Origin: an uncultured Bacilli bacterium
Lineage (GTDB): Bacteria > Bacillota_I > Bacilli_A > RF39 > UBA660
Direction: 5' to 3'
NCBI GenBank assembly: GCA_963931545.1
Contig: OZ007025.1
Coordinates: 740,312 to 804,311, forward strand
DNA: 64,000 nucleotides
Part shown: positions 156 through 64,000 of the stretch, one piece after another
Layout: the number at the start of each line of letters is the position of its first letter
Numbering within the stretch: the first letter of the stretch is position 1
Translations under genes and position numbers: made by a program
The notes under the pieces: generated by a model
Databases searched by the model: none
The model's input: the letters and a program-made list of their open reading frames with translations, nothing else
Told to the model about the DNA's origin: nothing

Positions 156-3100
156 ATGATGAAAAAAGGATTGAAATTATTAATTTTATTTGGTTTTTTT
201 ATTTTTTTACCTTTTATTAAAGTAGAAGCTGCTTCAACTTATACAGTTGAGATGGTTGCGAATCAAACTGGTAATAAAGTTATTGGTAAATATAATAGTT
301 ATAGTGCGGCTTTGAATGCTATGAATGCCCAAAGTTCTAATGCCAATAGTGTTGCAACTATTTATAGAGATGGTATTCCTGTTGATAGTAAGTATGGTAT
401 TTTTAAATTTAAACCCGGTAGTACTTATAATTTATATGAAAGTGCGACCGGAAAAGCGTATACCTATGTTCATGGCTCTTATGGTACTGATGCGGCTTTA
501 CTAGGATATAGTGAAAATGGTAGAGTTAAAGTTATGATTAGTGGTTATACTGGTTGGACCGAGATAAACAATGGTGTAGTAACTCCTATTTCTTTAATGG
601 GTATTAATGGAAATATGATTAATGTTCCTGGTGGACTTGGAATTAGAATTAGAAAAACTCCATCTTTAAAAGGAACGGTTATTACACAAGTTGGAACAAC
701 TTCTAATTTTAGTTATACGGAAACTAGAAATGCAGATGGTTATACTTGGTATAAAATTAGTTATAATGGTAGTGAGGCTTGGATAGCTAAAACAGATAGT
801 GTGACTGTTTTAACAGGTACTAATGGTCTTGGAACATATTATAATCATTATGGTCCTACTGGTAATTTAATACATCATTTTACTTATTATAATGGTAAGG
901 GTTATGGAGATACATTTACTAATTTAGGTACAGCTCCTTCATTTTTAACTAAGGATGTTAGGTATTATAGTTTTGATGGTATTTATTTTTATTCTAATTT
1001 GACAAGTATGCTTGATGATTATAGAAGTGGTGGTTATAAAAGAAGTATCAATTATAATAGTCCATATTATTCATATTATTTATATTTACCTAGTCATTCA
1101 GTGACTGGTTATACAGCTGAAGATTTAGATAGAATTATTGCAAATAAAGGTTATAATGCATCTACTTCAAAAATGTATGGTACAGGTAAATATTTTAAAG
1201 AAGCTGAAGCTACTTATGGTCAAAATGCTTTAATGATGTTTAGTACAGCTATGAATGAGAGTGCGAATGGTACAAGTAAGATTGCTATGGATAAAAATAA
1301 TTTATTTGGCTATGGAGCTTCTGATAGTAATCCTTATGATGGTGCTTATACATATGCAAATCCTAGAGAATCTATTATGGATTATGCTAAAAGGACAGGT
1401 GGTAGTTATTCTTTAGTGACTGGTGCATATTATTATGGTGGTCATTATGGTAATAAATCAAGTGGTAGAAATGTTAAATATGCTTCTGATCCTTACTGGG
1501 GAGAAAAACAAGCTAGTAACTCATTTTTAAGCGATTTGGATTATGGTGGTAAAGATTTTAATTCAAGTACTATTGGAGTTACTAATAAAGATTTTGCTAA
1601 TGTATGGGTTTTTGATAAACCTGAAAGAAGCGATGCGGCACATAGATATAGTTTAAAAAATCCTAATACTAACGCTTTAGTTTATGATGTTTCAGTAAAT
1701 GTTGTAGATAAAGTATTGGGAGCCAATAATGAATGGTTTTATAAAGTATATACTGATTTACCAACTAGTGACAATCTTTTATATGGTTATGTTTTAGCTA
1801 ATGAAGTTAATGTTTCTAATAATCAACCAGTTATAAATGCTTCCGATAAAACAATTAAAGAAGGAGATACATTTAATCCATTAGAAGGTGTTATAGCATC
1901 TGACACCGAAAATGGTAATTTGACTAATAAAATTACATATGAAAGTAATGTAAATCCTAATGAAGAAGGTACATATAAAGTTACTTATACGGTTGTAGAT
2001 AATAGTAATTTTCATGCTAGTAAAACAATTACTGTTAAGGTTATATCTGCTGAGCTTCCTATAATTACTGCTGAAGATAAGGAAGTTAAGCAATTCGAAG
2101 AGTTTGATTATATGGATGGTGTAAGTGCTAAGGCATATGATGGGACAGATTTAACTGATGATATTACTTATGAAGAGACAGTTAATACAGATATTGCTGA
2201 TACTTATGAGGTTACTTATAAAGTAAAAGATACTAAGGGTAAAGAAGCAAGTAAAACTATTAATGTAACAGTTATTCCTAATGAAAAGCCAGTTATTAAT
2301 GCATCAGATAAAGAAATTTATTTAAATAGTGATTTTGATCCTTTAGAGGGTGTTACGGCTAGTGATGCTGAGGATGGACCTATTGAAAAAATTGAATATA
2401 AAGGTGAAGTTAAAACTGATGAGGTAGGGGATTATAAGGTTACTTATATAGTTACTGATAAAAATGGTCAAAAGACCGAAAAAACTATAACTGTTAAAGT
2501 TATTGTAAATCAGCTTCCAGTTATCAATGCATATGATAAAACAGTTTATTTGAATAGTGATTTTGATCCATTGGATGGTGTTACAGCTTATGATCCTGAA
2601 GATGGAACAATTACTAAAATTAATGTTGATTTAAATGAAGTAAAAACAAATGAACTTGGTCAATATAAAGTGACTTATTCAGTAACTGATTCATATGAAC
2701 AAACAGTTACTAAAACAATCACAGTTACTGTTAGTGAAAAAGTATTAGAAGAAAAAGAAGGATTATTCTATATTGGTTATTTAAGTAATATTAATGGAAA
2801 ACTAGAATTAAAAGGATATAATACAATTAAAGGTATTGATAATGACTTAAATCAAAAAATAGAATATAAGATAACTTTGAAAAATGTTGATAATGGTAAA
2901 ACATATGAACAATACGCTACAAGAATAACTGATGACAAAGATATTCCATTTGATGTTTATAGTTCAGATGGTAAAAACTATAAATATTCATGGTTTACAT
3001 TTGATTTTGATTTATCAGGATTACCTGCTGGAAATTACACTGCATCAATCATGTCAATTGGTGAAGATTACTACTCTGAAAATGTAATTAACAACAAGAC

Positions 3101-3680
3101 TAATAGCACACAAATTACAAGTTTTAATAACAACAAATATGTGACTATTAGAAACAATTATAATTATGATGATAGCCCAATCGAATTTATTATTCGTGAT
3201 GAAAAGCTAGCCGATAAAACAGTTGGAAGCTATTATAACCAATTTGATAATTATATAGATTTTAATTTCACTAATGATAATAAGTTGCACTTAAGAGGAA
3301 TGTCATACTCTTATGGAATGAATTTATCTAGTAGTACAAATGTTACAAGAAAGATAATTTTTGAAAACCAAGAAACATACGAAACATATATTAAAGATTT
3401 AGGTTCTGTAACTAATGGTGATTATAGCGCACCTCTTCCAGTAAGTGATGGATTAGACAAGACAAGAGCTTGGTATGATAATAATCTTGATATATCTGAT
3501 ATTCCAAAAGGAAATTATACAATTTATATAACTACAAGTGCTAATGTTACAGATATATCAGAATTCACTGAAAAACTAGGTAGAACACTTGATGATGTTA
3601 AAGCAACTATTAATGGAAAAAAATACAGTTTTAACATTAATTTTTCTAAAAATAGTAGAATTGAAATGAAAGTTGAATAA
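156..3680 (+). CDS. Secreted modular cell-wall hydrolase: SH3b-like + GH73 N-acetylglucosaminidase + 4 Ig-like (DUF5011-type) repeats + 2 C-terminal repeats
   Basis: 1174 aa. AGGAGG RBS at 145-150 and a signal peptide ending KVEA/AS. GH73-like motif AMNESANGTSKIAMDKNNLFGYGA. Four tandem ~77-aa repeats (PVINASDK...TITVKV) at nt ~1821-2740, then two ~150-aa C-terminal repeats each containing GNYT. Confidence 0.8.
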   Translation: MMKKGLKLLILFGFFIFLPFIKVEAASTYTVEMVANQTGNKVIGKYNSYSAALNAMNAQSSNANSVATIYRDGIPVDSKYGIFKFKPGSTYNLYESATGKAYTYVHGSYGTDAALLGYSENGRVKVMISGYTGWTEINNGVVTPISLMGINGNMINVPGGLGIRIRKTPSLKGTVITQVGTTSNFSYTETRNADGYTWYKISYNGSEAWIAKTDSVTVLTGTNGLGTYYNHYGPTGNLIHHFTYYNGKGYGDTFTNLGTAPSFLTKDVRYYSFDGIYFYSNLTSMLDDYRSGGYKRSINYNSPYYSYYLYLPSHSVTGYTAEDLDRIIANKGYNASTSKMYGTGKYFKEAEATYGQNALMMFSTAMNESANGTSKIAMDKNNLFGYGASDSNPYDGAYTYANPRESIMDYAKRTGGSYSLVTGAYYYGGHYGNKSSGRNVKYASDPYWGEKQASNSFLSDLDYGGKDFNSSTIGVTNKDFANVWVFDKPERSDAAHRYSLKNPNTNALVYDVSVNVVDKVLGANNEWFYKVYTDLPTSDNLLYGYVLANEVNVSNNQPVINASDKTIKEGDTFNPLEGVIASDTENGNLTNKITYESNVNPNEEGTYKVTYTVVDNSNFHASKTITVKVISAELPIITAEDKEVKQFEEFDYMDGVSAKAYDGTDLTDDITYEETVNTDIADTYEVTYKVKDTKGKEASKTINVTVIPNEKPVINASDKEIYLNSDFDPLEGVTASDAEDGPIEKIEYKGEVKTDEVGDYKVTYIVTDKNGQKTEKTITVKVIVNQLPVINAYDKTVYLNSDFDPLDGVTAYDPEDGTITKINVDLNEVKTNELGQYKVTYSVTDSYEQTVTKTITVTVSEKVLEEKEGLFYIGYLSNINGKLELKGYNTIKGIDNDLNQKIEYKITLKNVDNGKTYEQYATRITDDKDIPFDVYSSDGKNYKYSWFTFDFDLSGLPAGNYTASIMSIGEDYYSENVINNKTNSTQITSFNNNKYVTIRNNYNYDDSPIEFIIRDEKLADKTVGSYYNQFDNYIDFNFTNDNKLHLRGMSYSYGMNLSSSTNVTRKIIFENQETYETYIKDLGSVTNGDYSAPLPVSDGLDKTRAWYDNNLDISDIPKGNYTIYITTSANVTDISEFTEKLGRTLDDVKATINGKKYSFNINFSKNSRIEMKVE

Positions 3681-7853: not shown

Positions 7854-8120
7854 TTTTAACCTCCTGATATAAAAAGTATAACATAGAAAACATAAAAAAC
7901 CAATTTATAAGGTAAAAAAAGCGTGTGTTTTTGATTTCTAAAGTATAAAATTTTAAAAGTAAAGAACAAGATTAGAAATACAATTAAATAACTTATGATA
8001 ATTTAGTGGAGCTGAGTAATAAGTATTAAAATTTTAAAATCCAAAATACATTTTTTTAGATGCCTATGATTTTATGCAAAAATCTGATATAATATTTTTG
8101 AAAACATGGAGGGGTATTTA

Positions 8121-10655
8121 ATGAACAAGAAAATTTTATATTGCTTATTTTTTGTTATGGCTTTTTTAGCATTTACTTTTGATGTAGATGCTGCCACTTT
8201 AAAGGAAGGAATTTATACAATCAAAAGTGCTTTAGGTACTAATATGGTAATTGATGTAGATAATGCCGGAACACATAATAAAACCAACGTGCAACTTTAT
8301 TCTAGTAATGGAACAAATGCTCAAAAATGGTATGTGAAACCGGTTGGGGATGGTTATTATGAAATTATGACTATGCTTGATAATAATTTATCTTTAGATG
8401 TAGATAATGCTGGTAAATCCAACAAAACCAATGTACAAATATATACTAAAAATAACACTAATGCCCAAAGATGGTACATAAAGGATGCTGGTGGTGGATA
8501 CTATAACATTATTTCAAAATGTAATGGTTTATATATTGATGTAGATAATGCTGGAATACGTAATAAAACTAATATTCAGATGTGGAATGGTAATGGAACA
8601 AATGCTCAAAAATTTAGATTTGTTGAAGATTTAGTTGGTCAGCAAAGTTTAGAGGATGGAATTTATAAAATTTCTAGTTTTGCTGATTCTACAAAATCAT
8701 TAAGTATTAATGGGAATGCTACGCAAAATTCTAAGGTTGTATTAGCCGATAGTGATAGTTCAATTGAACAAATGTGGAGAATTAAATATTTAGGGAATGG
8801 ATATTACACTATAACTTCATATGCTAATGAATGGATGGTGCTTGATGTTAAGAATGGCAGCAGTGCAAATGGAACAGATACTCAGCTATATCAAAGCAAC
8901 GGTTCAAATGCTCAAAAGTGGATAATTAGAGAAGAAGATGGATATTATAGTCTAATTTCTGCTTTAGATCACATGTATGTCGACATTGAAGATGGTAATA
9001 TTAAAAGTGGCACAAGTATTCAAATATACCAAACAAATGGTTCAAATGCCCAAAAATTTATTTTTACTAAAATGGAAGAACCTAAAATAGCAAATGGCTA
9101 TTATACTTTTAATAGTGCTTTGGATAATAATAAAGTTATTGATGTAAATGCTATGATTGCAACCAATAACATTCAAACAATTTTAAATGAAAATAATAAT
9201 CTCAATTCTCAAAAGTGGTATATTGAATACATAGCAGATGGATATTATTCTATTAAATCAGCACTTAATAATAATTTTGTTTTAGATGTTAAAAATGGTG
9301 ACAAAGTTAATGGAACAAAGGTGCAAATTTATTCTTCTAATGGTAGTGAAGCGCAAAAGTGGTACATAAAAGATGCTGGTGATGGATATTATTATATAAT
9401 TGCTAAAAATAGTTATAAATATTTAGATATTGCTGATGGAAAGTCAGCGAATGGAATAAGCATTCAAATTTATACCGGTAATAAGACAAATGCTCAAAAA
9501 TTTAAATTGACTCCTACAACCGTTAATGAAAATGAAGCACCTACGCACATATACGAAGAGGGCTATTATACAATTAATTCTAAATTAGCTAATAATAAAG
9601 TTTTAGATGTTGACAATGCTAAAAAAGCAAACGGAACTAATGTCCAACTTTATCAGAGTAATAATTCAGTTGCTCAAATATGGTATTTAAAGAAATTAGA
9701 TAATGGATATTATGCAATCTTAAGTTCAATGAATCCAGAAGTTGCTTTAACAGCTGCAAGTGGAGATAGAACAAATGGTGTAAATGTTCAAATATCAAAA
9801 TATGCCGATTTAGATACTCAAAAGTGGGCTATTAAAAATGATGGAAAAGGCTATAATGTTATTGTTTCAAAAGCCAATGGTTTGAACATTGATGTATTAA
9901 ACGGAAATACTACAAATGGAACTAATATTCAACTTTATCAAAACACTTTATCTGATTCTCAGTTTTTCCAATTAAAAAAGTACGAAGGTCAGAAGGTTTA
10001 TACTGGTATTGATGTTTCACATCACCAAAACACTATAGACTGGGCTACAGTGGCAAAATCAGATATTGGTTTCGTTATAATTAGAGCGGGCTATGGTGGA
10101 AATTGGACTGACCAAGATGATAGGGAGTTTTTAAATAATGTTAAAGCTTGTGAAGAATATAATATCCCATATGGTTTATACTTATATTCCTATGCTAGTG
10201 AAATTGATAATGATGATTCTAGTGCTCAAAATGAAGCTAGGCATATGCTACGTTTAATTGATCAAATAGAACAATATAATTATTCACCAAATCTAGGTAC
10301 AAAAGTATTTATTGACATGGAAGATAATAGTGTTGTTAATGCAGGAAAAGAACAATTAACAAATGTCTCTGATACTTTCTGTTCACAAATCGAGGCAAAC
10401 GGTTATAGTTGTGGTATTTATGCCAATAAAACATGGCTTACTAATCATTTAAATGCTCAAGAATTAGTTAAAAAATATGATATTTGGCTTGCTGAATGGC
10501 TACCAGTACCTAGTCCAAGTTTTGGATATGCAAAAAATCAAAAGCCAACTTATAATTTAACTCCTTATAAATATTGGCAATTTGCTTCAGATGGACATTT
10601 AAACGGAATAAACGGAAATGTTGATTTTGATTTGGGTTATGATATTTTTGATTAG
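8121..10655 (+). CDS. Secreted GH25 muramidase fused to four ricin-type beta-trefoil lectin domains (12 QxW subrepeats)
   Basis: GGAGGGG RBS upstream of the ATG at 8121; the track start at 8106 has no RBS. Signal peptide present. Twelve ~45-aa subrepeats end in AQKW/AQRW/AQKF-type motifs. C-terminal GH25 motif GIDVSHHQNTIDWATVAKSDIGFVIIRAGYG (nt ~10000-10652). Confidence 0.8.
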   Translation: MNKKILYCLFFVMAFLAFTFDVDAATLKEGIYTIKSALGTNMVIDVDNAGTHNKTNVQLYSSNGTNAQKWYVKPVGDGYYEIMTMLDNNLSLDVDNAGKSNKTNVQIYTKNNTNAQRWYIKDAGGGYYNIISKCNGLYIDVDNAGIRNKTNIQMWNGNGTNAQKFRFVEDLVGQQSLEDGIYKISSFADSTKSLSINGNATQNSKVVLADSDSSIEQMWRIKYLGNGYYTITSYANEWMVLDVKNGSSANGTDTQLYQSNGSNAQKWIIREEDGYYSLISALDHMYVDIEDGNIKSGTSIQIYQTNGSNAQKFIFTKMEEPKIANGYYTFNSALDNNKVIDVNAMIATNNIQTILNENNNLNSQKWYIEYIADGYYSIKSALNNNFVLDVKNGDKVNGTKVQIYSSNGSEAQKWYIKDAGDGYYYIIAKNSYKYLDIADGKSANGISIQIYTGNKTNAQKFKLTPTTVNENEAPTHIYEEGYYTINSKLANNKVLDVDNAKKANGTNVQLYQSNNSVAQIWYLKKLDNGYYAILSSMNPEVALTAASGDRTNGVNVQISKYADLDTQKWAIKNDGKGYNVIVSKANGLNIDVLNGNTTNGTNIQLYQNTLSDSQFFQLKKYEGQKVYTGIDVSHHQNTIDWATVAKSDIGFVIIRAGYGGNWTDQDDREFLNNVKACEEYNIPYGLYLYSYASEIDNDDSSAQNEARHMLRLIDQIEQYNYSPNLGTKVFIDMEDNSVVNAGKEQLTNVSDTFCSQIEANGYSCGIYANKTWLTNHLNAQELVKKYDIWLAEWLPVPSPSFGYAKNQKPTYNLTPYKYWQFASDGHLNGINGNVDFDLGYDIFD

Positions 10656-41315: not shown

Positions 41316-42515
41316 ATGAGACCACTTGCTGATAGTTTAAGGCCTAATAAATTAGATGATGTTATTGGCCAAAAACATTTAATAGGTAAAGATAAAGTTT
41401 TATATAATCTTATTAAACATGGTAAAATATTTTCAATGATTTTATATGGTCCTTGTGGGACTGGTAAAACGACTTTAGCTTATACTTTAGTAAATGAACT
41501 AAATTTAAAATGTGAATTTTTAAATGCTGTTATTAATAGTAAAAAAGATTTAGATTTAGTTATTGAGAAAGCTAAAGTTAATGATGGTATCATTTTAATT
41601 ATGGATGAAATACATAGATTAAACAAGGATAAACAGGATTTATTACTCCCCTACTTAGAAAATGGTTTAATTACTATAATTGGCTTAACGACTGCTAATC
41701 CATATCATTCAATTAATCCTGCTATTAGAAGTAGATGTCAACTATTTGAGGTTAAAGCATTAACGGATAATGATATTGAATATGCCTTGAATAAAGCTAC
41801 TAATTATCTAGATAAAATAAATATTACTGATGAAGCTATATCTTATATAGCAAGATTAGCTAATGGCGATTTAAGATATGCTTATAATTTGTTAGAAGTT
41901 GCTTATTATTCTTCAGAAAATTTTAAAATATCTTTAGAAGATTTAAAAAAAATAAATAATAAACCAAGCTTATATATAGATAAAAATGATGATGGATATT
42001 ATGATGTTATTAGTGCTTTACAAAAATCTATTAGAGGTAGTGATGTTAATGCGGCATTACATTATTTAGCTAGATTAATAGTTGCGGAAGATTTAGATAT
42101 TATATTTAGAAGGTTATCTGTCATAGCTTATGAAGATATTGGACTAGCTAACCCAGCTATTGGTCCTAGATTAGAGGCGGCCATTAATGCAGCTGAAAGA
42201 GTTGGACTTCCAGAAGCTAGAATTCCTTTAGGCGAAATTGTCATAGATATGGCTTTATCTCCTAAATCAAATAGTGCGCACGTGGCTTTAGATATGGCTA
42301 TTAATGATGTTAAAATGGGACATGTAGGTAAAGTGCCAAGTCATATTAAAACTAATTCTAAAGATTATAAATATCCCCATAATTATAAAGGAGGATATAT
42401 TAAACAGCAATATTTACCTGATGAATTGAAAGAAAGAAGATATTATAATCCTAAAACTACCAGTAAATATGAAATGAACTTAAAAAACATTTACGATAAA
42501 ATTAATAATTTGTAA
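41316..42515 (+). CDS. rarA: Replication-associated recombination protein A (AAA+ ATPase)
   Basis: ATG at 41316 gives MRPLADSLRPNKLDDVIGQ. Walker A is GPCGTGKTT. The track GTG start at 41301 is less likely. Confidence 0.85.
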   Translation: MRPLADSLRPNKLDDVIGQKHLIGKDKVLYNLIKHGKIFSMILYGPCGTGKTTLAYTLVNELNLKCEFLNAVINSKKDLDLVIEKAKVNDGIILIMDEIHRLNKDKQDLLLPYLENGLITIIGLTTANPYHSINPAIRSRCQLFEVKALTDNDIEYALNKATNYLDKINITDEAISYIARLANGDLRYAYNLLEVAYYSSENFKISLEDLKKINNKPSLYIDKNDDGYYDVISALQKSIRGSDVNAALHYLARLIVAEDLDIIFRRLSVIAYEDIGLANPAIGPRLEAAINAAERVGLPEARIPLGEIVIDMALSPKSNSAHVALDMAINDVKMGHVGKVPSHIKTNSKDYKYPHNYKGGYIKQQYLPDELKERRYYNPKTTSKYEMNLKNIYDKINNL

Positions 42516-43026
42516 ATGTTTTTATTTTGTTAAATTCTTTACATTTTGCTTCTAATAATATGTAATTACAGCATCTATCTTTTACGTTATTTGGTAATTT
42601 GTTTTTTTGATATAGTTCATATAATAATTTTGATTTTTGATATATATCTTTTTTGTGCGTTGTTAACCATCTTAGTTGGTTTCTAAGTAAATCAATTCTA
42701 AATTTTTCTTGTTTATTGATTGGTTTATCATTTAAATCAAACACAATATAATTTTCTTGAGTCACAGGAATCATATTATTAAAATTTACTACTCCATATT
42801 CCCCATTATTAATTTTTAATAAGTCAATAGTATTTTTTAACTTTTTATGTTTTTCTTTGGGACTGGATAGTGGAGCAAAATATTCGCATTTGTCTATTTT
42901 AAACAATATTCCGACAAATGGTCTAAGTTCTTTATTACCAGCATTATACACCACTCTATTATCAAATTTTCTTAAATAATCACAATAATTAGAATTAACT
43001 TTTACAATTTTAATTTTTTTATACAT
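42502..43026 (-). CDS. toxN: Type III toxin-antitoxin system toxin, ToxN/AbiQ-family endoribonuclease
   Basis: 174 aa. AGGAGG RBS. Family-like N-terminal half: YLRKFDNRV...RPFVGILFKIDKCEYFAPLSSPKEKHKKL. Preceded by a tandem repeat array and a terminator. Confidence 0.75.
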   Translation of the reverse strand: MYKKIKIVKVNSNYCDYLRKFDNRVVYNAGNKELRPFVGILFKIDKCEYFAPLSSPKEKHKKLKNTIDLLKINNGEYGVVNFNNMIPVTQENYIVFDLNDKPINKQEKFRIDLLRNQLRWLTTHKKDIYQKSKLLYELYQKNKLPNNVKDRCCNYILLEAKCKEFNKIKTFTNY

Positions 43027-43117: not shown

Positions 43118-43119
43118 TC

Positions 43120-43235
43120 TTTTTTAGCTGCCATTTATAGAGCTGGCTTCACTCACTTTTTTAGCTGCCATTTATAGAGCTGGCTTCACTCACTTTTTTA
43201 GCTGCCATTTATAGGCTGGCTTCACCTGCTTTTTT
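43120..43235 (-). ncRNA. toxI: ToxI/AntiQ-like antitoxin RNA repeat array (3 units of 37, 37 and 36 nt, plus a degenerate partial unit extending to ~43251)
   Basis: Units 43120-43156 and 43157-43193 are identical. Unit 43194-43229 has a few changes. The transcribed-strand unit is GTGAGTGAAGCCAGCTCTATAAATGGCAGCTAAAAAA. There is no ORF. Confidence 0.7.
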
Positions 43236-43313
43236 AATCGCTATATTTGAGTAACCATACTGGTTATTCAGTATGACTACAAACTTCATTTTTTGAAGTG
43301 TTATAGCATTATT

Positions 43314-57876: not shown

Positions 57877-59508
57877 TTAGGCTTGAATTTGACTATACAT
57901 TGAAAACATTGGTACAACAATTGATAATACGATTACTCCAACCATTGCTGTTAACATAATAATTAAAGCTGGTTCAACAAATGTTTTAATACGTGTAACT
58001 GAATTTTTATGTAAATCTTGATAATATAATGATATTTTATACATCATTTCTGGTAGTTGACCACTTCTTTCTCCAGTAACAATCATTTCATAAGCTGGCA
58101 ATGGAAAGGCCCACTGGTTTTTAAAGGCTAATGAAATTGATTTTCCTTGAGAAATATTGTTTATTGCTTTTTGAATTAATTCTTTATATATTTCATTATT
58201 AGTTACTTTATTTAAAATTTTCATACTATCTGTGATAAAAACATTATGTGAAAGCAAAGAAGAAAATGTTTTAGTAAATGTAGTTACTTCTTTATATATG
58301 ATAACACTACCAAATACTGGCAGATGCATTAATATCCATTGTACTGTTTTTCGATATGCTTTAACATTTTTATATAAATAAATACTTAAAATTAATAATA
58401 TAACAATGGCTATTCCTATGTATATAATATATTTTTGTAAAAATTGACTGAGTGCTAAAACGGCAGAAGTGATTGCTGGTATTTTAGTGCTATCCATTGT
58501 GTTATAAATTTCGATAAATTTAGGAACTACATATAGCATGATGAATGTTCCAACTCCAATTGCAATTACAAAAATAATTGCGGGATACATCATTGCTGTA
58601 ATCATTGCTTTTCTAGTAGCTTCTATTTCTGTAAAATAGGCTTCCATATCATCTAATGTTTCTGGAAGTTCTCCTGTCATTTCTGCGGTTTTAACCATAT
58701 TAATTAAAATATTAGGGAAAGTGTTTCCTTGTTTAGCAAGTGCTTCACTAAAACTTTTTCCAGTAGTTAAATCATAACTTAATGTGGCTAAAATTCTTTT
58801 ATATTTTTCATTTTTAAATTGTTTTGTTAATATTTTTATAGCCTCGGCTAAGGGAATACCAACTTTTAAATAAGTAGAAACTTGAGCCAAAAAGAAAATT
58901 AAATCATGTGTTTTAAATTTATCCCCTGTTTTTCCAACACTATTATGTGAAAAATTTATCCATATATTTGTTTTAATTTTATAAATTTTATATCCCTGAG
59001 TTTTTAAATATGAATGCACTTCAACTAAAGAATATGCAGCGAAATAGCCTTTTACTATTTTTCCTTCTGGATTTCTTGCAATATATTCATAAATACGTTT
59101 TTTGCTTGTTTTTTTTGCTTCAGGGCCATTATAATTAATTATCATTTCCTGAGTATCTTTATATTTATCTTTAATTTCAGTGCTGCCAATTTTTGTGTTT
59201 AATAATTTACTTAGTTTTTTTGAAAAAGATTCTTTTTCTTTTGGTGTATCTTTGTTAGTCTTTATGTTTTTTTCTCTATTATGTTCAGCTAATAATAATT
59301 CGGTTTTTTTATAACGATTTTCGGTTTTTTGTGATTTGATAACAGGCTTTTTTGCTGTGTTAGTTGGGGTAAATAGCTTTGCCATAATAGTTGGAAATGC
59401 CATTATTCCCAAAAAGACATATCTAAAGAATTTACCAATAGCTTTAAATAATTCTATAATACCATGATAGACATAAATGAATGGGGATAACAAAAATTTA
59501 AAGTTCAT
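57877..59508 (-). CDS. pilC: Type IV pilus/T2SS platform protein (PilC/GspF family) with a ~135-aa N-terminal extension
   Basis: 543 aa with two T2SSF-type repeats (GIPLAEAIKIL..., GKSISLAF...). The extra N-terminus has a hydrophobic segment and a Lys-rich tract. Confidence 0.75.
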   Translation of the reverse strand: MNFKFLLSPFIYVYHGIIELFKAIGKFFRYVFLGIMAFPTIMAKLFTPTNTAKKPVIKSQKTENRYKKTELLLAEHNREKNIKTNKDTPKEKESFSKKLSKLLNTKIGSTEIKDKYKDTQEMIINYNGPEAKKTSKKRIYEYIARNPEGKIVKGYFAAYSLVEVHSYLKTQGYKIYKIKTNIWINFSHNSVGKTGDKFKTHDLIFFLAQVSTYLKVGIPLAEAIKILTKQFKNEKYKRILATLSYDLTTGKSFSEALAKQGNTFPNILINMVKTAEMTGELPETLDDMEAYFTEIEATRKAMITAMMYPAIIFVIAIGVGTFIMLYVVPKFIEIYNTMDSTKIPAITSAVLALSQFLQKYIIYIGIAIVILLILSIYLYKNVKAYRKTVQWILMHLPVFGSVIIYKEVTTFTKTFSSLLSHNVFITDSMKILNKVTNNEIYKELIQKAINNISQGKSISLAFKNQWAFPLPAYEMIVTGERSGQLPEMMYKISLYYQDLHKNSVTRIKTFVEPALIIMLTAMVGVIVLSIVVPMFSMYSQIQA

Positions 59509-59616
59509 TTTAACACCTTCCTATTCTTTTATGCTAAATTTATTATAACATAATAATTTTTAAAATAAAACTTTTTTTATTTAAATCATATAATATTTTA
59601 GAAGGGGGCTAGAATC

Positions 59617-59955
59617 ATGAATTTTTATAATCCCTATTATTATGTTATTCCTACGACTAGTGCTGGATTAGGGCGTGGATTATTTGGTGGAGCTCTACGC
59701 AATGGTATTAATTGGAGTGGAATTTTAAATGGTGCTCAAAGAACTTTAGGGTTAGTAAATCAAGCAATTCCTTTAGTTAAACAAGCGGCTCCTATGATGA
59801 GAAATGCTAAAACAATGTTTAAGGTTATGAATGAATTTAAAAAAGTTGATACACCTGTTAGCAAAAATAGTAATGAAAACAATGTTCATAATAGTAATAC
59901 AATTACTGAAAATGAAACTACCAATTATAATAGTGGGCCAACCTTTTTTCTTTAA
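59617..59955 (+). CDS. YqfQ/VrrA-like small protein
   Basis: 112 aa. GAAGGGGG RBS. A Gly-rich stretch is followed by the LGLVNQAIPLVKQAAPMMRNAKTMFKVM segment seen in YqfQ-like proteins. Confidence 0.35.
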   Translation: MNFYNPYYYVIPTTSAGLGRGLFGGALRNGINWSGILNGAQRTLGLVNQAIPLVKQAAPMMRNAKTMFKVMNEFKKVDTPVSKNSNENNVHNSNTITENETTNYNSGPTFFL

Positions 59956-59985
59956 TTATTTAAAAGAAAATTTTATATACTAATT

Positions 59986-60020
59986 AAAAATACTCCTATT
60001 TAATTTTTAGGAGTATTTTT
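59986..60020. terminator. Bidirectional terminator between convergent genes
   Basis: 12-bp stem AAAAATACTCCT/AGGAGTATTTTT. Confidence 0.75.
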
Positions 60021-62790
60021 AATTTGTTTGAGTAAATTTCCATTTTTGGGAAGCTGTTTTATTACATGTATACAATTGTATTTTTGTTCCATCTGTTGTT
60101 AAGCCACCAGAAACATCTAAACATTTATTACTTGTTTTATGTTTAATATAATAATATCCATCTCCTGCATTTTCTAAATAAAATCTTTGTCCATCTGTTG
60201 AATTACATATATAACTTTGGATTTTAGTTCCATCTGATGTTCCATTGTTTGCTACATCTAAACAAGCGTTTGTAACACCTATATGATATATTTTATAATA
60301 TACTTTACCATCAATTATACTTTCAACAGCGGGCATCCATTTTTGCCCAATATCTTTATTATTACTCCATAGCCAAATACTACATTCTCCATTATTTGCA
60401 TTACAATTACTTTGTTCTATTGAAAGGGTTTTATTATTATCTAAACCACTTATAAGCTGGTATTTTGTAGATAATGAAGTATTAATTACAAAATTAGGAT
60501 TAATCGTATAATCATGGGTGGTTGAATTGCCTTCTTGCCATTCTGTTATGTTAGGTACTGTATAACCAGAGTCTTCTACTACGGCCGAATTATATTCAAT
60601 AGTTCCACCATGTATTTCAAAAGTTCCATAATCTATGTTAAGTCCACCTGGTGCTGATTCAGTTGCTGTATTATTTGTAATACTTCCACCATTCATTACA
60701 AACGTTCCTTTAACAAATTGTACTCCTCCTCTAATTTCTCCAATATTATTAGAAATAGTTCCATTATTCATTACAAATGTTCCATTAGCAATGTGTACTC
60801 CTCCATCGACACCTCTATTATTTGTTATTAAGCCTTCATTCATTGTAAGAGTTCCATCAGCTACATAAATACCGCCTACTGTTGTTCCATAATTTTGATT
60901 AATTTCTCCACCATTTATTGTAATGGTTCCTCCACCTTGATAGATTCCTCCAACAATTCCATTTGAGTTATGTCCATTTTTTATAGTAGTACCATCTTCA
61001 ATATTTAAATTGCTTAAACTATCAATTAAGGTGTTTTGAGCAGTAATGTTTTTTCCATCTATTGTTATGTTTTCCAATGTAAGATTTCCTGCCATATGTC
61101 TTAATACATGCTCTAAATTACTTGCGGTTCTAAGTATGCTATATGTATTATTATAGCTTGTTAAGGTTATTTCTTTATCATCATCCATTAGTAACACTTC
61201 ATCTTGATTTATATTACTTTTTAGATATATTGTTGTATTATCATTCGCGTTGTCATATGTTTTTTGAATTGTTTTATATGGCTTATTAAATGTTCCTGCT
61301 CCTGTATTATCATTTGCGGTTGCTAATACATAATATTTTGTCCTTTTTACGTTATATGTACTTGATAAGGTATTTACTCCATCAGATACTGCTGCTACTA
61401 CATTTCCATCAAATGGAAAATATATGGTTGGTTTAGTATTAGTTATTGTTACTGCACTTTCATTATCTTTTTGATAGGTACATGTTAATGTGCTTCCACA
61501 TCCGCTTGGATATGTTATTACTACTTCTCCTTCATAATCTTCACTAAAGGTTGGTGTGGTAATTGACTTAGTGGTAACTATTTTTCTGGTATTTGTTGTT
61601 TTACCACTTTTTGATGTTACTCTAACTTCTACTGTATAACTTTTTCCTTGATTTAGATTTGTAAAATTATGAGTGGTACTAGTATTGCCATCTATCCAAT
61701 TTCCACCATTTATTCTATATTCATATTTAGTTATTCCACTATCAGCTTGGGCATTTGATACTACGGTTATACTATTGGTTGTACTTGTAGTTGATATGCT
61801 TAAACTTATATTATCTACTTTAACTTTTGAAGTTAGTGTTGTATTACTACTAACTGTATATTTATCATCTGGATTTCCTACTTTAGAACTTCCACTATAC
61901 CATCCATCTATTATATAGCCTTTATTAGGGGTTATGGTTGGTAAGGTTATTTCACATTCTGTTTCTCTATTATATATTGTACATATATCACTATTTTTTC
62001 CTATACTTTCTATATTGCTTCCTTTGTTATAGGTTACTTTTATTTCTTTTTTATAGATAGCATATAAGGTACTTGTTCCGACTGGCATTTGATATTCGCT
62101 TAGTCCTACCTCAGCATCTTTATCGGTATTCCAGCCTACAAATGTCCATCCATTTTTGTAGGCTTTAATATTTAAATCTACTTTACTTCCACTTGCTAGA
62201 TATTCTCCTTCACTATCAGTTCTTTCTCCTCCATTTGTTTTATAATCATAGGTTAATAGATATGTACTTGGGGCTTCTGGGTCTTTATTTTCTTGAGTAT
62301 ATTCAAATTCTATTTCTACTTCATTTGAAGTTGGCTCTCCTTCATAGTTTGGATTATATTCTATTTTTACATGAACTAATTTACTTTTTCCATGTTCTAA
62401 GACTTCTCCTTTGGTATATCCTGAGAAGGTTATTATTACCGCTTCACTATTTGAGTTTTGGGTATTTGTTAATATATCATTTAGTTTAGCATCTAAGGTC
62501 CCTCTATTTTCTATGGTTACATCATATTCCATGGCATCGCCTTTTTTATACAAATCGGCTTCCATTGAGGCTGTTAAGGTGGTCCATGATGGTTTTACTG
62601 TATTTTTGGCACTTCCTGTTGGAGTTCCATCTGTAACATTAGTTATTCTTATATCCCAGTTACTAGTTACTTTTGAAGTTCCTGAGATTTTTAATTCTGT
62701 ATTAAACGCAGCATAGCCTACTACCATACATAGTAGTACTCCTACTAAACTTAATATTATTATACTTCTTTTCTTTTTCCCTCTATGCAT
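60019..62790 (-). CDS. Large modular surface/secreted protein: N-terminal anchor or signal, Listeria-Bacteroides (InlB B-type) repeats, FN3, right-handed beta-helix repeats, C-terminal ricin-type lectin
   Basis: Start taken at the ATG at 62790 (MHRGKKKRS), with GGTGA 5 nt upstream. Motifs WTFVGWNTD and GYIIDGWYSG. FN3-like ITKYEYRINGG. Glycine-rich beta-helix turns GGIY.. / GGVH.. / GGVQ... C-terminal QxW lectin (GQKW, GQRF, SQKW). Confidence 0.75.
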   Translation of the reverse strand: MHRGKKKRSIIILSLVGVLLCMVVGYAAFNTELKISGTSKVTSNWDIRITNVTDGTPTGSAKNTVKPSWTTLTASMEADLYKKGDAMEYDVTIENRGTLDAKLNDILTNTQNSNSEAVIITFSGYTKGEVLEHGKSKLVHVKIEYNPNYEGEPTSNEVEIEFEYTQENKDPEAPSTYLLTYDYKTNGGERTDSEGEYLASGSKVDLNIKAYKNGWTFVGWNTDKDAEVGLSEYQMPVGTSTLYAIYKKEIKVTYNKGSNIESIGKNSDICTIYNRETECEITLPTITPNKGYIIDGWYSGSSKVGNPDDKYTVSSNTTLTSKVKVDNISLSISTTSTTNSITVVSNAQADSGITKYEYRINGGNWIDGNTSTTHNFTNLNQGKSYTVEVRVTSKSGKTTNTRKIVTTKSITTPTFSEDYEGEVVITYPSGCGSTLTCTYQKDNESAVTITNTKPTIYFPFDGNVVAAVSDGVNTLSSTYNVKRTKYYVLATANDNTGAGTFNKPYKTIQKTYDNANDNTTIYLKSNINQDEVLLMDDDKEITLTSYNNTYSILRTASNLEHVLRHMAGNLTLENITIDGKNITAQNTLIDSLSNLNIEDGTTIKNGHNSNGIVGGIYQGGGTITINGGEINQNYGTTVGGIYVADGTLTMNEGLITNNRGVDGGVHIANGTFVMNNGTISNNIGEIRGGVQFVKGTFVMNGGSITNNTATESAPGGLNIDYGTFEIHGGTIEYNSAVVEDSGYTVPNITEWQEGNSTTHDYTINPNFVINTSLSTKYQLISGLDNNKTLSIEQSNCNANNGECSIWLWSNNKDIGQKWMPAVESIIDGKVYYKIYHIGVTNACLDVANNGTSDGTKIQSYICNSTDGQRFYLENAGDGYYYIKHKTSNKCLDVSGGLTTDGTKIQLYTCNKTASQKWKFTQTN

Positions 62791-62806
62791 ATCATTCACC
62801 AATTAT

Positions 62807-62837
62807 ATTATACCCCCCCCCCCCATAAAAATTTCAA
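62807..62837 (-). promoter_or_regulatory. Promoter of the surface-protein gene with a G12 tract in the spacer
   Basis: On the - strand: TTGAAA (62837-62832), TTTTTAT, G12 (62824-62813), TATAAT (62812-62807). Spacer is 19 nt. Confidence 0.5.
62813..62824. repeat. Homopolymer C12 (+ strand), G12 on the coding strand
   Basis: Counted directly: 8 C at the end of the line starting 62761 plus 4 C at the start of the next line. Confidence 0.95.
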
Positions 62838-62893
62838 GTTTTTTTAATACAAAAGTAAAAAAAGAAACAAGGTTTTACACTTATTTCTTTATT

Positions 62894-62906
62894 GGGGGTG
62901 GGGGGG
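62894..62906. repeat. G5-T-G7 tract (+ strand), complementary to the C12 tract 69 nt away
   Basis: Counted directly: GGGGGTGGGGGGG. Confidence 0.95.
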
Positions 62907-62951
62907 TTATTTATTACTATACCTAGTGATAGATTAATATAAATAATTTCT

Positions 62952-64000
62952 TTAATTTGTTTCATATTTTTTTAAATATTCATCATAGGTCATTTGTTTA
63001 TCAATATATGTTCCATCTTCTTTAATTAAAATTAATCTGTTGGCTAAGGTTGATATTAATTCAGTATCAAATGTTGAAAATACTATTGGTCCATCAAATT
63101 TAGCTAAACCATTATTTAATGAAGTAATTGATTCAATATCTAAATGGTTGGTAGGTTCATCTAAAAGTAATACATTACCTTTATTTAGCATCATTTTGGC
63201 AAACATACATCTTACTTTTTCGCCACCTGACAAAACATTTACCTTTTTTAATGCTTCTTCTGATGAGAACAACATTCTTCCTAAAAAGCCTCTTACAAAA
63301 CTATCTTCTTTATTTTCTGAAAATTTTCTTAACCATTCTACTAAATCCTCATTTGTTTCAAAGTATTTATCATGGTTTTTTGGAAAATATGATGTAATGA
63401 CAGTTGTTCCTACTTTAATTTCTCCGCTATCTGGTATTCTTTCTCCTGCTAATATTTGAAGTAATGTAGTTTTAGCAATTTCGTTTTCTCCAATTAGGGC
63501 AATTTTATCATCTTTTTTAATATTTAAAGTAAAGTTTTTTAATATATCTTTACCATCAATAATTACATTAATCTTACTTAATGTAATTATCTCTTTACCA
63601 AGTCTTTTTTCATAATCGAAATTAATATATGGATATTTTCTTGAGGATGGTTTTAGTTCTTCTAAGGATATTTTTTCTAATAATTTTTTTCTAGAAGTTG
63701 CTTGTTTAGATTTAGAAGCATTGGCAGAAAATCTCGCAATAAAGCTTTGTAATTCTTTAATTTTTTCTTCTTTCTTTTTATTAGCTTGTTTTATTTGTTT
63801 TTGCATTAATTCATTAGATTGATACCAAAAATCATAATTACCAATAGTTATTTGAATTCTTTCTCTATCAATATCACACATATGTGTACATACTGTGTTT
63901 AAAAAATGTCTATCATGAGATACTAAGATAATTGTTCCTTTATAATCAGATAAGAAATTTTCTAGCCAGATTTTACTTTGAATATCTAAACCATTAGTAG
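62952..64000 (-). CDS. ABC-F family ATPase, partial (N-terminus beyond the window end)
   Basis: The frame stays open upstream of the track start: ...KGTIILVSHDRHFLNTVCTHMCDID. A Lys/Gln-rich inter-domain linker is followed by a second NBD with signature LSGGEKVR and Walker B LLLDEPTNHLD. Confidence 0.85.
   Translation of the reverse strand, partial: TNGLDIQSKIWLENFLSDYKGTIILVSHDRHFLNTVCTHMCDIDRERIQITIGNYDFWYQSNELMQKQIKQANKKKEEKIKELQSFIARFSANASKSKQATSRKKLLEKISLEELKPSSRKYPYINFDYEKRLGKEIITLSKINVIIDGKDILKNFTLNIKKDDKIALIGENEIAKTTLLQILAGERIPDSGEIKVGTTVITSYFPKNHDKYFETNEDLVEWLRKFSENKEDSFVRGFLGRMLFSSEEALKKVNVLSGGEKVRCMFAKMMLNKGNVLLLDEPTNHLDIESITSLNNGLAKFDGPIVFSTFDTELISTLANRLILIKEDGTYIDKQMTYDEYLKKYETN

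Follow-up and report, generated by a model that had tools for sequence, protein, structure and literature searches.

What is a pure run of twelve guanines doing inside a promoter, in front of a gene for a predicted surface protein, in DNA with a guanine-plus-cytosine (GC) content of 25.8%? The question is raised by a stretch of 64,000 nucleotides (nt) from an uncultured Bacilli bacterium (lineage RF39; UBA660), namely positions 740,312 to 804,311 of contig OZ007025.1 in assembly GCA_963931545.1, hereafter the window, where the G12 tract lies between the -35-like and -10 hexamers that precede a gene of 923 amino acids (aa) on the minus strand. An earlier interpretation made from the letters of the window alone (the sequence-only reading) had seen in it a candidate phase-variation switch. 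Tracts of this kind stand at the same promoter position in front of several related genes and differ in length between assemblies, and we infer from these sequence comparisons that the G12 promoter is probably a slipped-strand contingency promoter of the porA/tp0126/vlp type.

Architecture of the G-tract promoter

Read on the minus strand, the region upstream of the gene is composed of the following elements.

62837-62832, minus strand: -35-like hexamer TTGAAA, read from the sequence (counterparts in relatives: TCGAAA, TTGATT, TTGACA, TTGTCA and TTGCCA, 4-7 nt 5' of the tract)
62831-62825, minus strand: AT part of the spacer, TTTTTAT (in relatives TTTTCAT, TTTTGAT or TTTCCAT)
62824-62813, minus strand (C12 on the plus strand): G12 homopolymer, 3' part of the spacer, the proposed slippage-prone element
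62812-62807, minus strand: -10 hexamer TATAAT, directly abutting the tract and aligning with TAAAAT of the paralogue L026
62806-62791, minus strand: short leader ATAATTGGTGAATGAT, 16 nt, near-invariant in alignment group A1
62800-62796, minus strand: Shine-Dalgarno sequence GGTGA within the leader
62790-62788, minus strand: start codon ATG
60019-62790, minus strand: the regulated gene, 923 aa, with its ATG at 62790

The layout given by the sequence-only reading is thereby confirmed, with a spacer of 19 nt from TTGAAA to TATAAT, 12 of which are G. Its statement that the window holds no other G or C run of comparable length, apart from a "partner" tract nearby, is also borne out: G12 is the sole G or C run longer than 7 nt, the remaining runs of at least 5 nt (eight of G and one of C) measure 5-7 nt each, and the longest of these are the G7 and G5 of the plus strand (C7AC5 on the minus strand, 62906-62894) that form the partner itself. 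From base composition, about 3e-6 G or C runs of at least 12 nt are expected per window. The promoter is also rare in its own right, as sites matching at least 11 of the 12 consensus positions with spacers of 16-19 nt number 13 in 128 kb (both strands), the G12 promoter included. It is missing from the list of the promoter scan tool because this tool considers spacers of 16-18 nt only, and a spacer of 19 nt exceeds that limit.

A second perfect TATAAT (62807-62802, minus strand) overlaps the first at a 5-nt offset (TATAATATAAT), and only the first aligns with the -10 hexamers of tract-free paralogues. An alternative promoter with TTTTAT as its -10 hexamer and a start inside the G run was considered and rejected as not general, two tract-bearing relatives (L045 and L046) carrying AAACCT before the tract.

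How might such an element act? The G12 tract would be the hypermutable spacer element of a sigma-70/sigmaA-type promoter driving a lectin-bearing protein that is secreted or at the surface. During replication, slipped-strand mispairing would add or remove G residues, the spacing from the -35 to the -10 hexamer would shift with the G count (19 nt for G12, 18 nt for G11, 17 nt for G10), and promoter strength would shift with it, so that a clonal population would come to contain cells differing in expression of the protein (ON/OFF or volume control). A terminator immediately upstream would leave the switch promoter as the main determinant of transcription, and the design would be family-wide, with several paralogous surface-protein cassettes each carrying its own G or T spacer tract. 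The sequences show the architecture, its register and recurrence, the specificity of strand and position, length differences between assemblies and the accessory status of the cassette; the mechanism further presumes a slippage rate, a transcription start, an effect of tract length on transcription and an adaptive value that we infer.

Register, recurrence and length of the tract in related promoters

Is the register of the two hexamers correct, and is the tract peculiar to a single genome? The related DNA that bears on both questions comes from 42 fetched loci encoding relatives of the N-terminal domain of the product, and from further loci obtained by exact-protein look-ups (L numbers below). 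Most paralogues have ordinary promoters. The tract-free paralogue L026 reads TTGACA-17-TAAAAT followed by ATAATTGGTGAATAATATG, in a register identical to that of the window when measured from the conserved leader ATAATTGGTGAAT.ATATG, and its TAAAAT aligns exactly with the TATAAT of the window, which supports the -35/-10 assignment and is decisive for the register; L025, which has both a tract and a TAAAAT hexamer, likewise confirms the register of the -10 hexamer. A G tract, pure (G11-G13) or interrupted, separates -35-like from -10-like hexamers at eleven further loci of uncultured small-genome gut Bacilli. The promoters with a G tract are as follows.

Window, L001-L003, L006 and L007: TTGAAA-TTTTTAT-G12-TATAAT, spacer 19
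L008: TCGAAA-TTTTCAT-G11-TATAAT, spacer 18
L060: TCGAAA-TTTTCAT-G12-TATAAT, spacer 19
L038 (one metagenome-assembled genome, MAG, with L054): TTGAAA-TTTTGAT-G11-TATAAT, spacer 18
L054 (one MAG with L038): TTGAAA-TTTTGAT-G12-TATAAT, spacer 19
L062 and L063 (two samples): TTGAAA-TTTCCAT-G4AG7-TATAAT, spacer 19
L059 (2.8x coverage): TTGAAA-TTTTTAT-GGAG7TG4-TATAAT, spacer 22
L061 (contig begins within the tract): G12 or more, followed by T and GGG, TATAAT; -35 hexamer and 5' part of the spacer not assembled
L025: TTGATT-TTTA-G11-TGA-TAAAAT, spacer 18
L036 (human-gut MAG): TTGACA-ATAAA-G13-TATACT, spacer 18
L045 (one MAG with L046; rabbit-named): TTGTCA-AAACCT-G12-TATAAT, spacer 18
L046 (one MAG with L045; rabbit-named): TTGCCA-AAAACCT-G12-TATAAT, spacer 19

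Pure tracts of G11 to G13 are found at the position homologous to the G12 of the window in L008, L025, L036, L038, L045, L046, L054 and L060. In the fetched related DNA (~418 kb), all G or C runs of at least 8 nt lie in promoter spacers of family genes; the G is on the coding strand, a -10-like hexamer lies 0-3 nt downstream of the run and a -35-like hexamer 4-7 nt upstream of it. A search for homologues of the neighbouring ABC-F ATPase gene gave nineteen sister-lineage loci without the gene, which served as negative controls (they added no tract lengths), and no G or C run of even 6 nt was found at these loci. Since four unrelated flank contexts (window group; L025; L036; and L045 with L046, at ~40% protein identity) share the tract in a 26% GC background, the comparison argues for selection to keep a pure tract. 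Long poly-T tracts occur in the same protein family, and are apparently a T-tract analogue of the G-tract switch:

L040 113-128 (one MAG with L042): CCTTG-T16-GAGT-TACAAT
L042 2928-2947 (one MAG with L040): CCTTG-T20-GAGT-TACAAT
L047 53-71 and 98-123: T19 and T26, in a promoter-like context

Could the tract nevertheless be a mutational accident without function, or a sequencing or assembly artefact such as the poly-G of two-colour chemistry? The L061 contig, which begins with G12, and the odd tract of L059 (GGAG7TG4, at 2.8x) speak for such an explanation. The G12 tract is, however, identical and contig-internal in three long-read-style assemblies from different samples (L001-L003; contigs of 40-445 kb), several short-read assemblies made independently have a G tract there too, different assemblers place it inside long contigs, and it is conserved across diverged promoters and species. 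The tract is real, and not the assembly artefact that the sequence-only reading had named as fatal to its proposal; recurrence across assemblies and species refutes the accident as well, and we give this explanation scarcely any weight.

The comparison of tract length across strains and MAGs, which had been proposed as a check, came out in favour of the switch, with G11 and G12 on near-identical flanks, G13 in L036, and interrupted tracts in some relatives. The same flank haplotype TCGAAA/TTTTCAT carries G11 in L008 and G12 in L060, and two paralogues of one MAG carry G11 (L038) and G12 (L054); L061, whose contig breaks inside the tract, was also counted for length variability. Spacer length is taken as the relevant variable because 17 nt is the mode in tract-free family promoters, those with a confident unique best match (n=21) having spacers of 16 (3), 17 (12), 18 (4), 19 (1) and 20 nt (1), and the tract promoters lie 1-2 nt away from it.

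Several observations weigh against slippage as the function of the tract. The ten fully assembled loci with pure or G4AG7 tracts have a spacer of 18 nt in five cases and of 19 nt in the other five, no assembled tract copy has a spacer of 17 nt, and this predominance of 18 and 19 could reflect a required fixed geometry. The interrupted G4AG7 tract, identical in L062 and L063, still totals 12 nt, which would fit a length constraint as well as a "locked" switch, and L008 and L060 have a degraded -35 hexamer, TCGAAA. The one-base differences come mainly from short-read assemblies at ~4-13x, in which homopolymer calls are error-prone, while the window strain has G12 in all three long-read-style assemblies; variation in tract length between assemblies appears suggestive and not proven, a one-base error being possible at such coverage. 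Finally, a conserved C-rich block upstream of the promoter (next section) plays no role in the slippage model. With spacers of 18-19 nt, the promoter may in the gut be mostly in a low or OFF state that one or two slips would turn ON; alternatively, a G·C block may shift the optimum, or length may be constrained for another reason.

Some of these observations are the strength of the main competing explanation, a fixed spacer element with a structural or regulatory role. The tract might be a rigid, under-twisted block of G·C, a site for protein binding or a segment prone to form G-quadruplexes; it would set the geometry of the promoter or render it dependent on supercoiling or an activator, with mutability as a side effect. 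The ten loci all at 18-19 nt with none at 17, the total of 12 held by G4AG7 in two samples, the G invariably on the coding strand, and the G12 of the three window-strain assemblies are all consistent with it. Length nevertheless differs between near-identical flanks, and T16 and T20 fill the same role in relatives, so that base identity is not essential. A dyad symmetry, as in MerR-type promoters with 19-20-nt spacers, was sought in the spacer TTTTTATGGGGGGGGGGGG by reading the sequence, and none was found. We know of no bacterial poly-G-binding activator, and pure runs of 11-13 G are intrinsically unstable, as are G/C tracts of at least 8 nt in general. In one published set, 76% of 17 G/C tracts of at least 8 nt were length-variable (PMC7864442), which also counts against a fixed element. 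Such an element is in our view unlikely, although it is the explanation with the most to say for itself after slippage.

The C-rich block and the accessory cassette

If the tract is a switch, what are the conserved sequences around it? The features concerned are these.

62894-62906, minus strand: C-block C7AC5 (family consensus CCCCCACCACCCCC), imperfect inverted partner of the G tract and left edge of a conserved, duplicated cassette
62861-62890, minus strand: AT-rich hairpin (AAAGAAATAAG / CTTGTTTCTTT), then a T run to ~62854; -9.6 kcal/mol, z = -2.7
59988-60018, minus strand: hairpin and T run after the stop codon, read from the sequence
59956-62950, minus strand: the whole accessory cassette of ~3 kb (C-block, terminator, switch promoter, gene, terminator)

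The AT-rich hairpin with its T run is likely an intrinsic terminator shielding the switch promoter from read-through of the upstream ABC-F ATPase gene (stop codon at 62952-62954); it is conserved in L008, L038, L054, L059 and L060, and in L025 and L036 its place is taken by other hairpins. The hairpin at 59988-60018 is likely a bidirectional terminator common to the regulated gene and a convergent yqfQ-like gene, beyond which lie a T2SS-F/PilC-like gene, a prepilin peptidase gene and iPGM. A search of Rfam with 59400-64000 returned no credible RNA family (rli43 at 20 bits, for a gathering score of 100).

The ~3-kb cassette is missing at the 19 sister-lineage empty sites (L066-L084; ABC-F 90-95% identical), where the ABC-F gene is followed after ~20 nt by the bidirectional terminator and yqfQ. 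As ABC-F runs there directly into the terminator and yqfQ, the cassette is an accessory insertion, and the empty sites serve to place its BLAST boundaries at ~62950-62960 and ~59955 of the window. Paralogues in other genomic contexts (L038, L054, L059) become similar to the window at the C-block, and remain so through terminator, promoter and the 5' part of the gene. The -10 hexamer and leader as a module (TATAATATAATTGGTGAATAATATG) also occur without a G tract before unrelated genes (L015 911-935 and L016 2689-2713); a scan of metagenome DNA with the 25-mer of -10 and leader returned only these two unrelated genes, both tract-free, and the module appears to be a generic promoter and ribosome-binding-site unit of these organisms.

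In the fetched DNA, the C-block occurs only beside G-tract promoters (window group, L008, L025, L036, L038, L054, L059, L060), where it precedes three different terminator hairpins (in the window group, L025 and L036); it is absent at L045 and L046, which both have G12. Does it pair with the tract? In RNA reading through from ABC-F, the two would form a G·C stem of ~13 bp around the first terminator, and this stem would be a further terminator, a roadblock or a stabiliser of the 3' end; a hairpin of the same arms could, in single-stranded DNA, modulate slippage. The arms of the inverted repeat are 20-22 nt long, 77-80% complementary and 56-57 nt apart, a predicted fold pairs C-block and G tract at -40.7 kcal/mol (z = -2.3), and the co-occurrence of block and tract in three terminator contexts, and nowhere else in the fetched DNA, is in keeping with a pair. 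Covariation is however absent, as a C-to-G change in L008 (C5GC2AC5 against G11) breaks the pairing, the block of L062 is degenerate (ACCACCACTACCCC), L036 opposes only C4AC3 to G13, and L045 and L046 have G12 without a C-block. In addition, no U tract follows the G arm, the C-block of L025 pairs locally with TGGGGT as an ordinary terminator stem, and the predicted transcription start lies downstream of the G tract, which would be absent from the gene's own transcript. A functional pairing of block and tract seems improbable to us, more so than a fixed spacer element.

An intrinsic terminator or attenuator formed by block and tract was rejected on the broken pairing in L008 and L062, the missing block in L045 and L046 and the missing U run. 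A 43-aa open reading frame (ORF; 62834-62965, minus strand) that would translate the C-block was dismissed as spurious, since conservation upstream is lacking in the paralogues.

The same inverted repeats recall an inverton, in which a site-specific recombinase would flip a promoter segment flanked by the C-block and the G tract, and they do flank the -35 hexamer and the terminator, albeit imperfectly. Known invertons measure ~150-300 bp or more, while the segment between the arms here is only 56-57 bp; no recombinase gene was called within ~4 kb upstream or 14 kb downstream; the orientation is the same in every assembly examined (more than 15 loci); and the arms are homopolymeric and diverge independently. 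Segment size, the lack of a recombinase nearby and the single orientation effectively refute this mechanism, whose likelihood we put at practically nil.

The C-block may plausibly be an insulator, and a role in slippage is speculative. A bolder extension of the slippage model, which we hold to be rather doubtful, would make C-block, insulating terminator and homopolymer-spacer promoter a "contingency cassette" that is portable and is spread and duplicated together with the surface-protein genes of the lineage, the C-block being part of the mechanism; by pairing with the G tract, in single-stranded DNA or in read-through RNA, it might adjust slippage, restore the tract to a given length through template switching, or strengthen insulation. 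Such a two-element switch, if true, would be undescribed for porA-type promoters.

The predicted surface protein, known systems and significance

What would the slippage promoter switch? The 923-aa product starts with a basic and hydrophobic signal or anchor helix (residues 4-29, …GYAAFNTE), followed by a beta-sandwich and then a B-repeat of the InlB type (Flg_new in Pfam; TM 0.74-0.79 to 2y5p by Foldseek); fn3/Y_Y_Y is matched weakly, a Gly-rich repeat region is present as well, and a Ricin-B lectin domain lies at the C-terminus (E = 4e-30, with PDB sequence matches as well). A fold search of PDB with the N-terminal domain confirmed only the InlB B-repeat and gave no significant match for the first beta-sandwich. 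The sequence-only reading had described a lectin-bearing beta-helix surface protein: the lectin stands, and the beta-helix, like the Gly-rich repeat region, finds no support in Pfam. A weak match to Peptidase_M73 (SipW-dependent TasA/camelysin fibre proteins, PF12389; E = 0.013, 15.8 bits for a cut-off of 22.5) was obtained, the PDB fold search of the N-terminal domain returned no TasA match, and the residues …GYAAFNTE may resemble the signal-cleavage region of TasA. Helix, B-repeat and lectin together suggest an exposed binding protein, secreted or at the surface.

The start of the gene deserves attention, since public gene calls (L001-L003) begin at M22 (window position 62727 instead of 62790), giving a 902-aa form that cuts the basic N-region of the signal or anchor peptide, so that these calls hide the signal peptide. 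An exact-protein look-up of the 923-aa product found no record, and the 902-aa form is present; our ORF lister, for its part, extends the frame to an upstream TTG (927 aa).

Many samples carry a short allele of ~253 aa in place of the 923-aa form, made of residues 1-188, one Gly-rich turn and the last 25 lectin residues (L008 3729-4490; L061), and short-read contigs often end inside the regulated gene (L010, L011, L013). Short allele and contig breaks suggest modular deletion or recombination variants beside promoter switching.

Elements of this kind are classical. In Bordetella pertussis fim2/fim3, a C/G homopolymer of ~12-15 nt upstream of the -10 hexamer tunes fimbrial transcription by spacing; it separates a site for the activator BvgA from the -10 hexamer, whereas the present promoter shows no evident activator site. 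In Neisseria meningitidis, porA, fetA and opc are controlled by homopolymers placed between -35 and -10 (PMC2791445). As in the window, poly-G (porA) or poly-C stands there between the hexamers of a surface-protein gene, and in Neisseria its length sets the spacer and with it the level of transcription (PMC2791445; PMC7864442). The porA promoter belongs, however, to a Gram-negative pathogen, has its optimum at 11 G with a 17-nt spacer in contrast to the 18-19 nt assembled here, and shares no gene or promoter homology with the present cassette, which adds a conserved C-rich block and a terminator.

The tp0126 gene of Treponema pallidum also has a poly-G between -35 and -10, with optimal transcription at 17 nt, and in this species poly-G marks several paralogous surface-protein genes (tp0126, tprE/G/J, tprL) and varies within isolates (PMC7864442). 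T. pallidum is GC-rich and has many poly-G tracts, whereas the G12 tract is a strong compositional outlier in a genome of 26% GC, and the tract of tprL overlaps the -10 region instead of lying in the spacer.

Comparable switches occur in the low-GC, small-genome, Bacilli-related Mollicutes, where paralogous surface-protein genes each have their own promoter or spacer repeat and are combinatorially ON or OFF (Mycoplasma hyorhinis vlp, poly-A; M. mycoides vmm, TA repeat; PMC10502178). They differ in using A or TA tracts and lipoproteins, in contrast to the G tracts (T in some relatives) and signal-peptide lectin/B-repeat proteins described here, and in that the present organism is walled (PASTA, glucosaminidase, GH25 and SpoIIM genes in the window). 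The literature searched for phase variation in gut Bacilli that are RF39-like or uncultured yielded no relevant report. New are the lineage of uncultured small-genome gut Bacilli, the family-wide use of G or T tracts, and the cassette with C-block and terminator.

Elsewhere in the window, two genes for wall- or surface-associated proteins have no homopolymer of at least 8 nt upstream, namely 8106-10655 (plus strand; 849 aa, with seven Ricin-B lectin repeats and a GH25 lysozyme domain) and 156-3680 (plus strand; 1174 aa, with SH3, glucosaminidase and Ig-like domains). Immediately upstream of a ToxN-family toxin gene (42502-43026, minus strand; Pfam E = 1e-45) there is a 37-nt tandem repeat in 3.2 copies (43119-43236), an arrangement as in type III ToxIN toxin-antitoxin systems.

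Slipped-strand promoter switches are described mainly from mucosal pathogens and mycoplasmas, and invertible promoters are best known in gut Bacteroides. The bacteria considered here are known from MAGs only, with names that point to rabbit, sheep, human and other gut samples, and the proposed mechanism, if confirmed, would mean that uncultured small-genome gut Bacilli diversify their lectin or adhesin surface proteins by slipped-strand promoter switches. As the tract is short and uniquely placeable, its length could be read from existing metagenomic reads, and the length distribution, if the switch is confirmed, would reveal without culture the ON/OFF structure of the population and selection by the host (e.g. 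through IgA).

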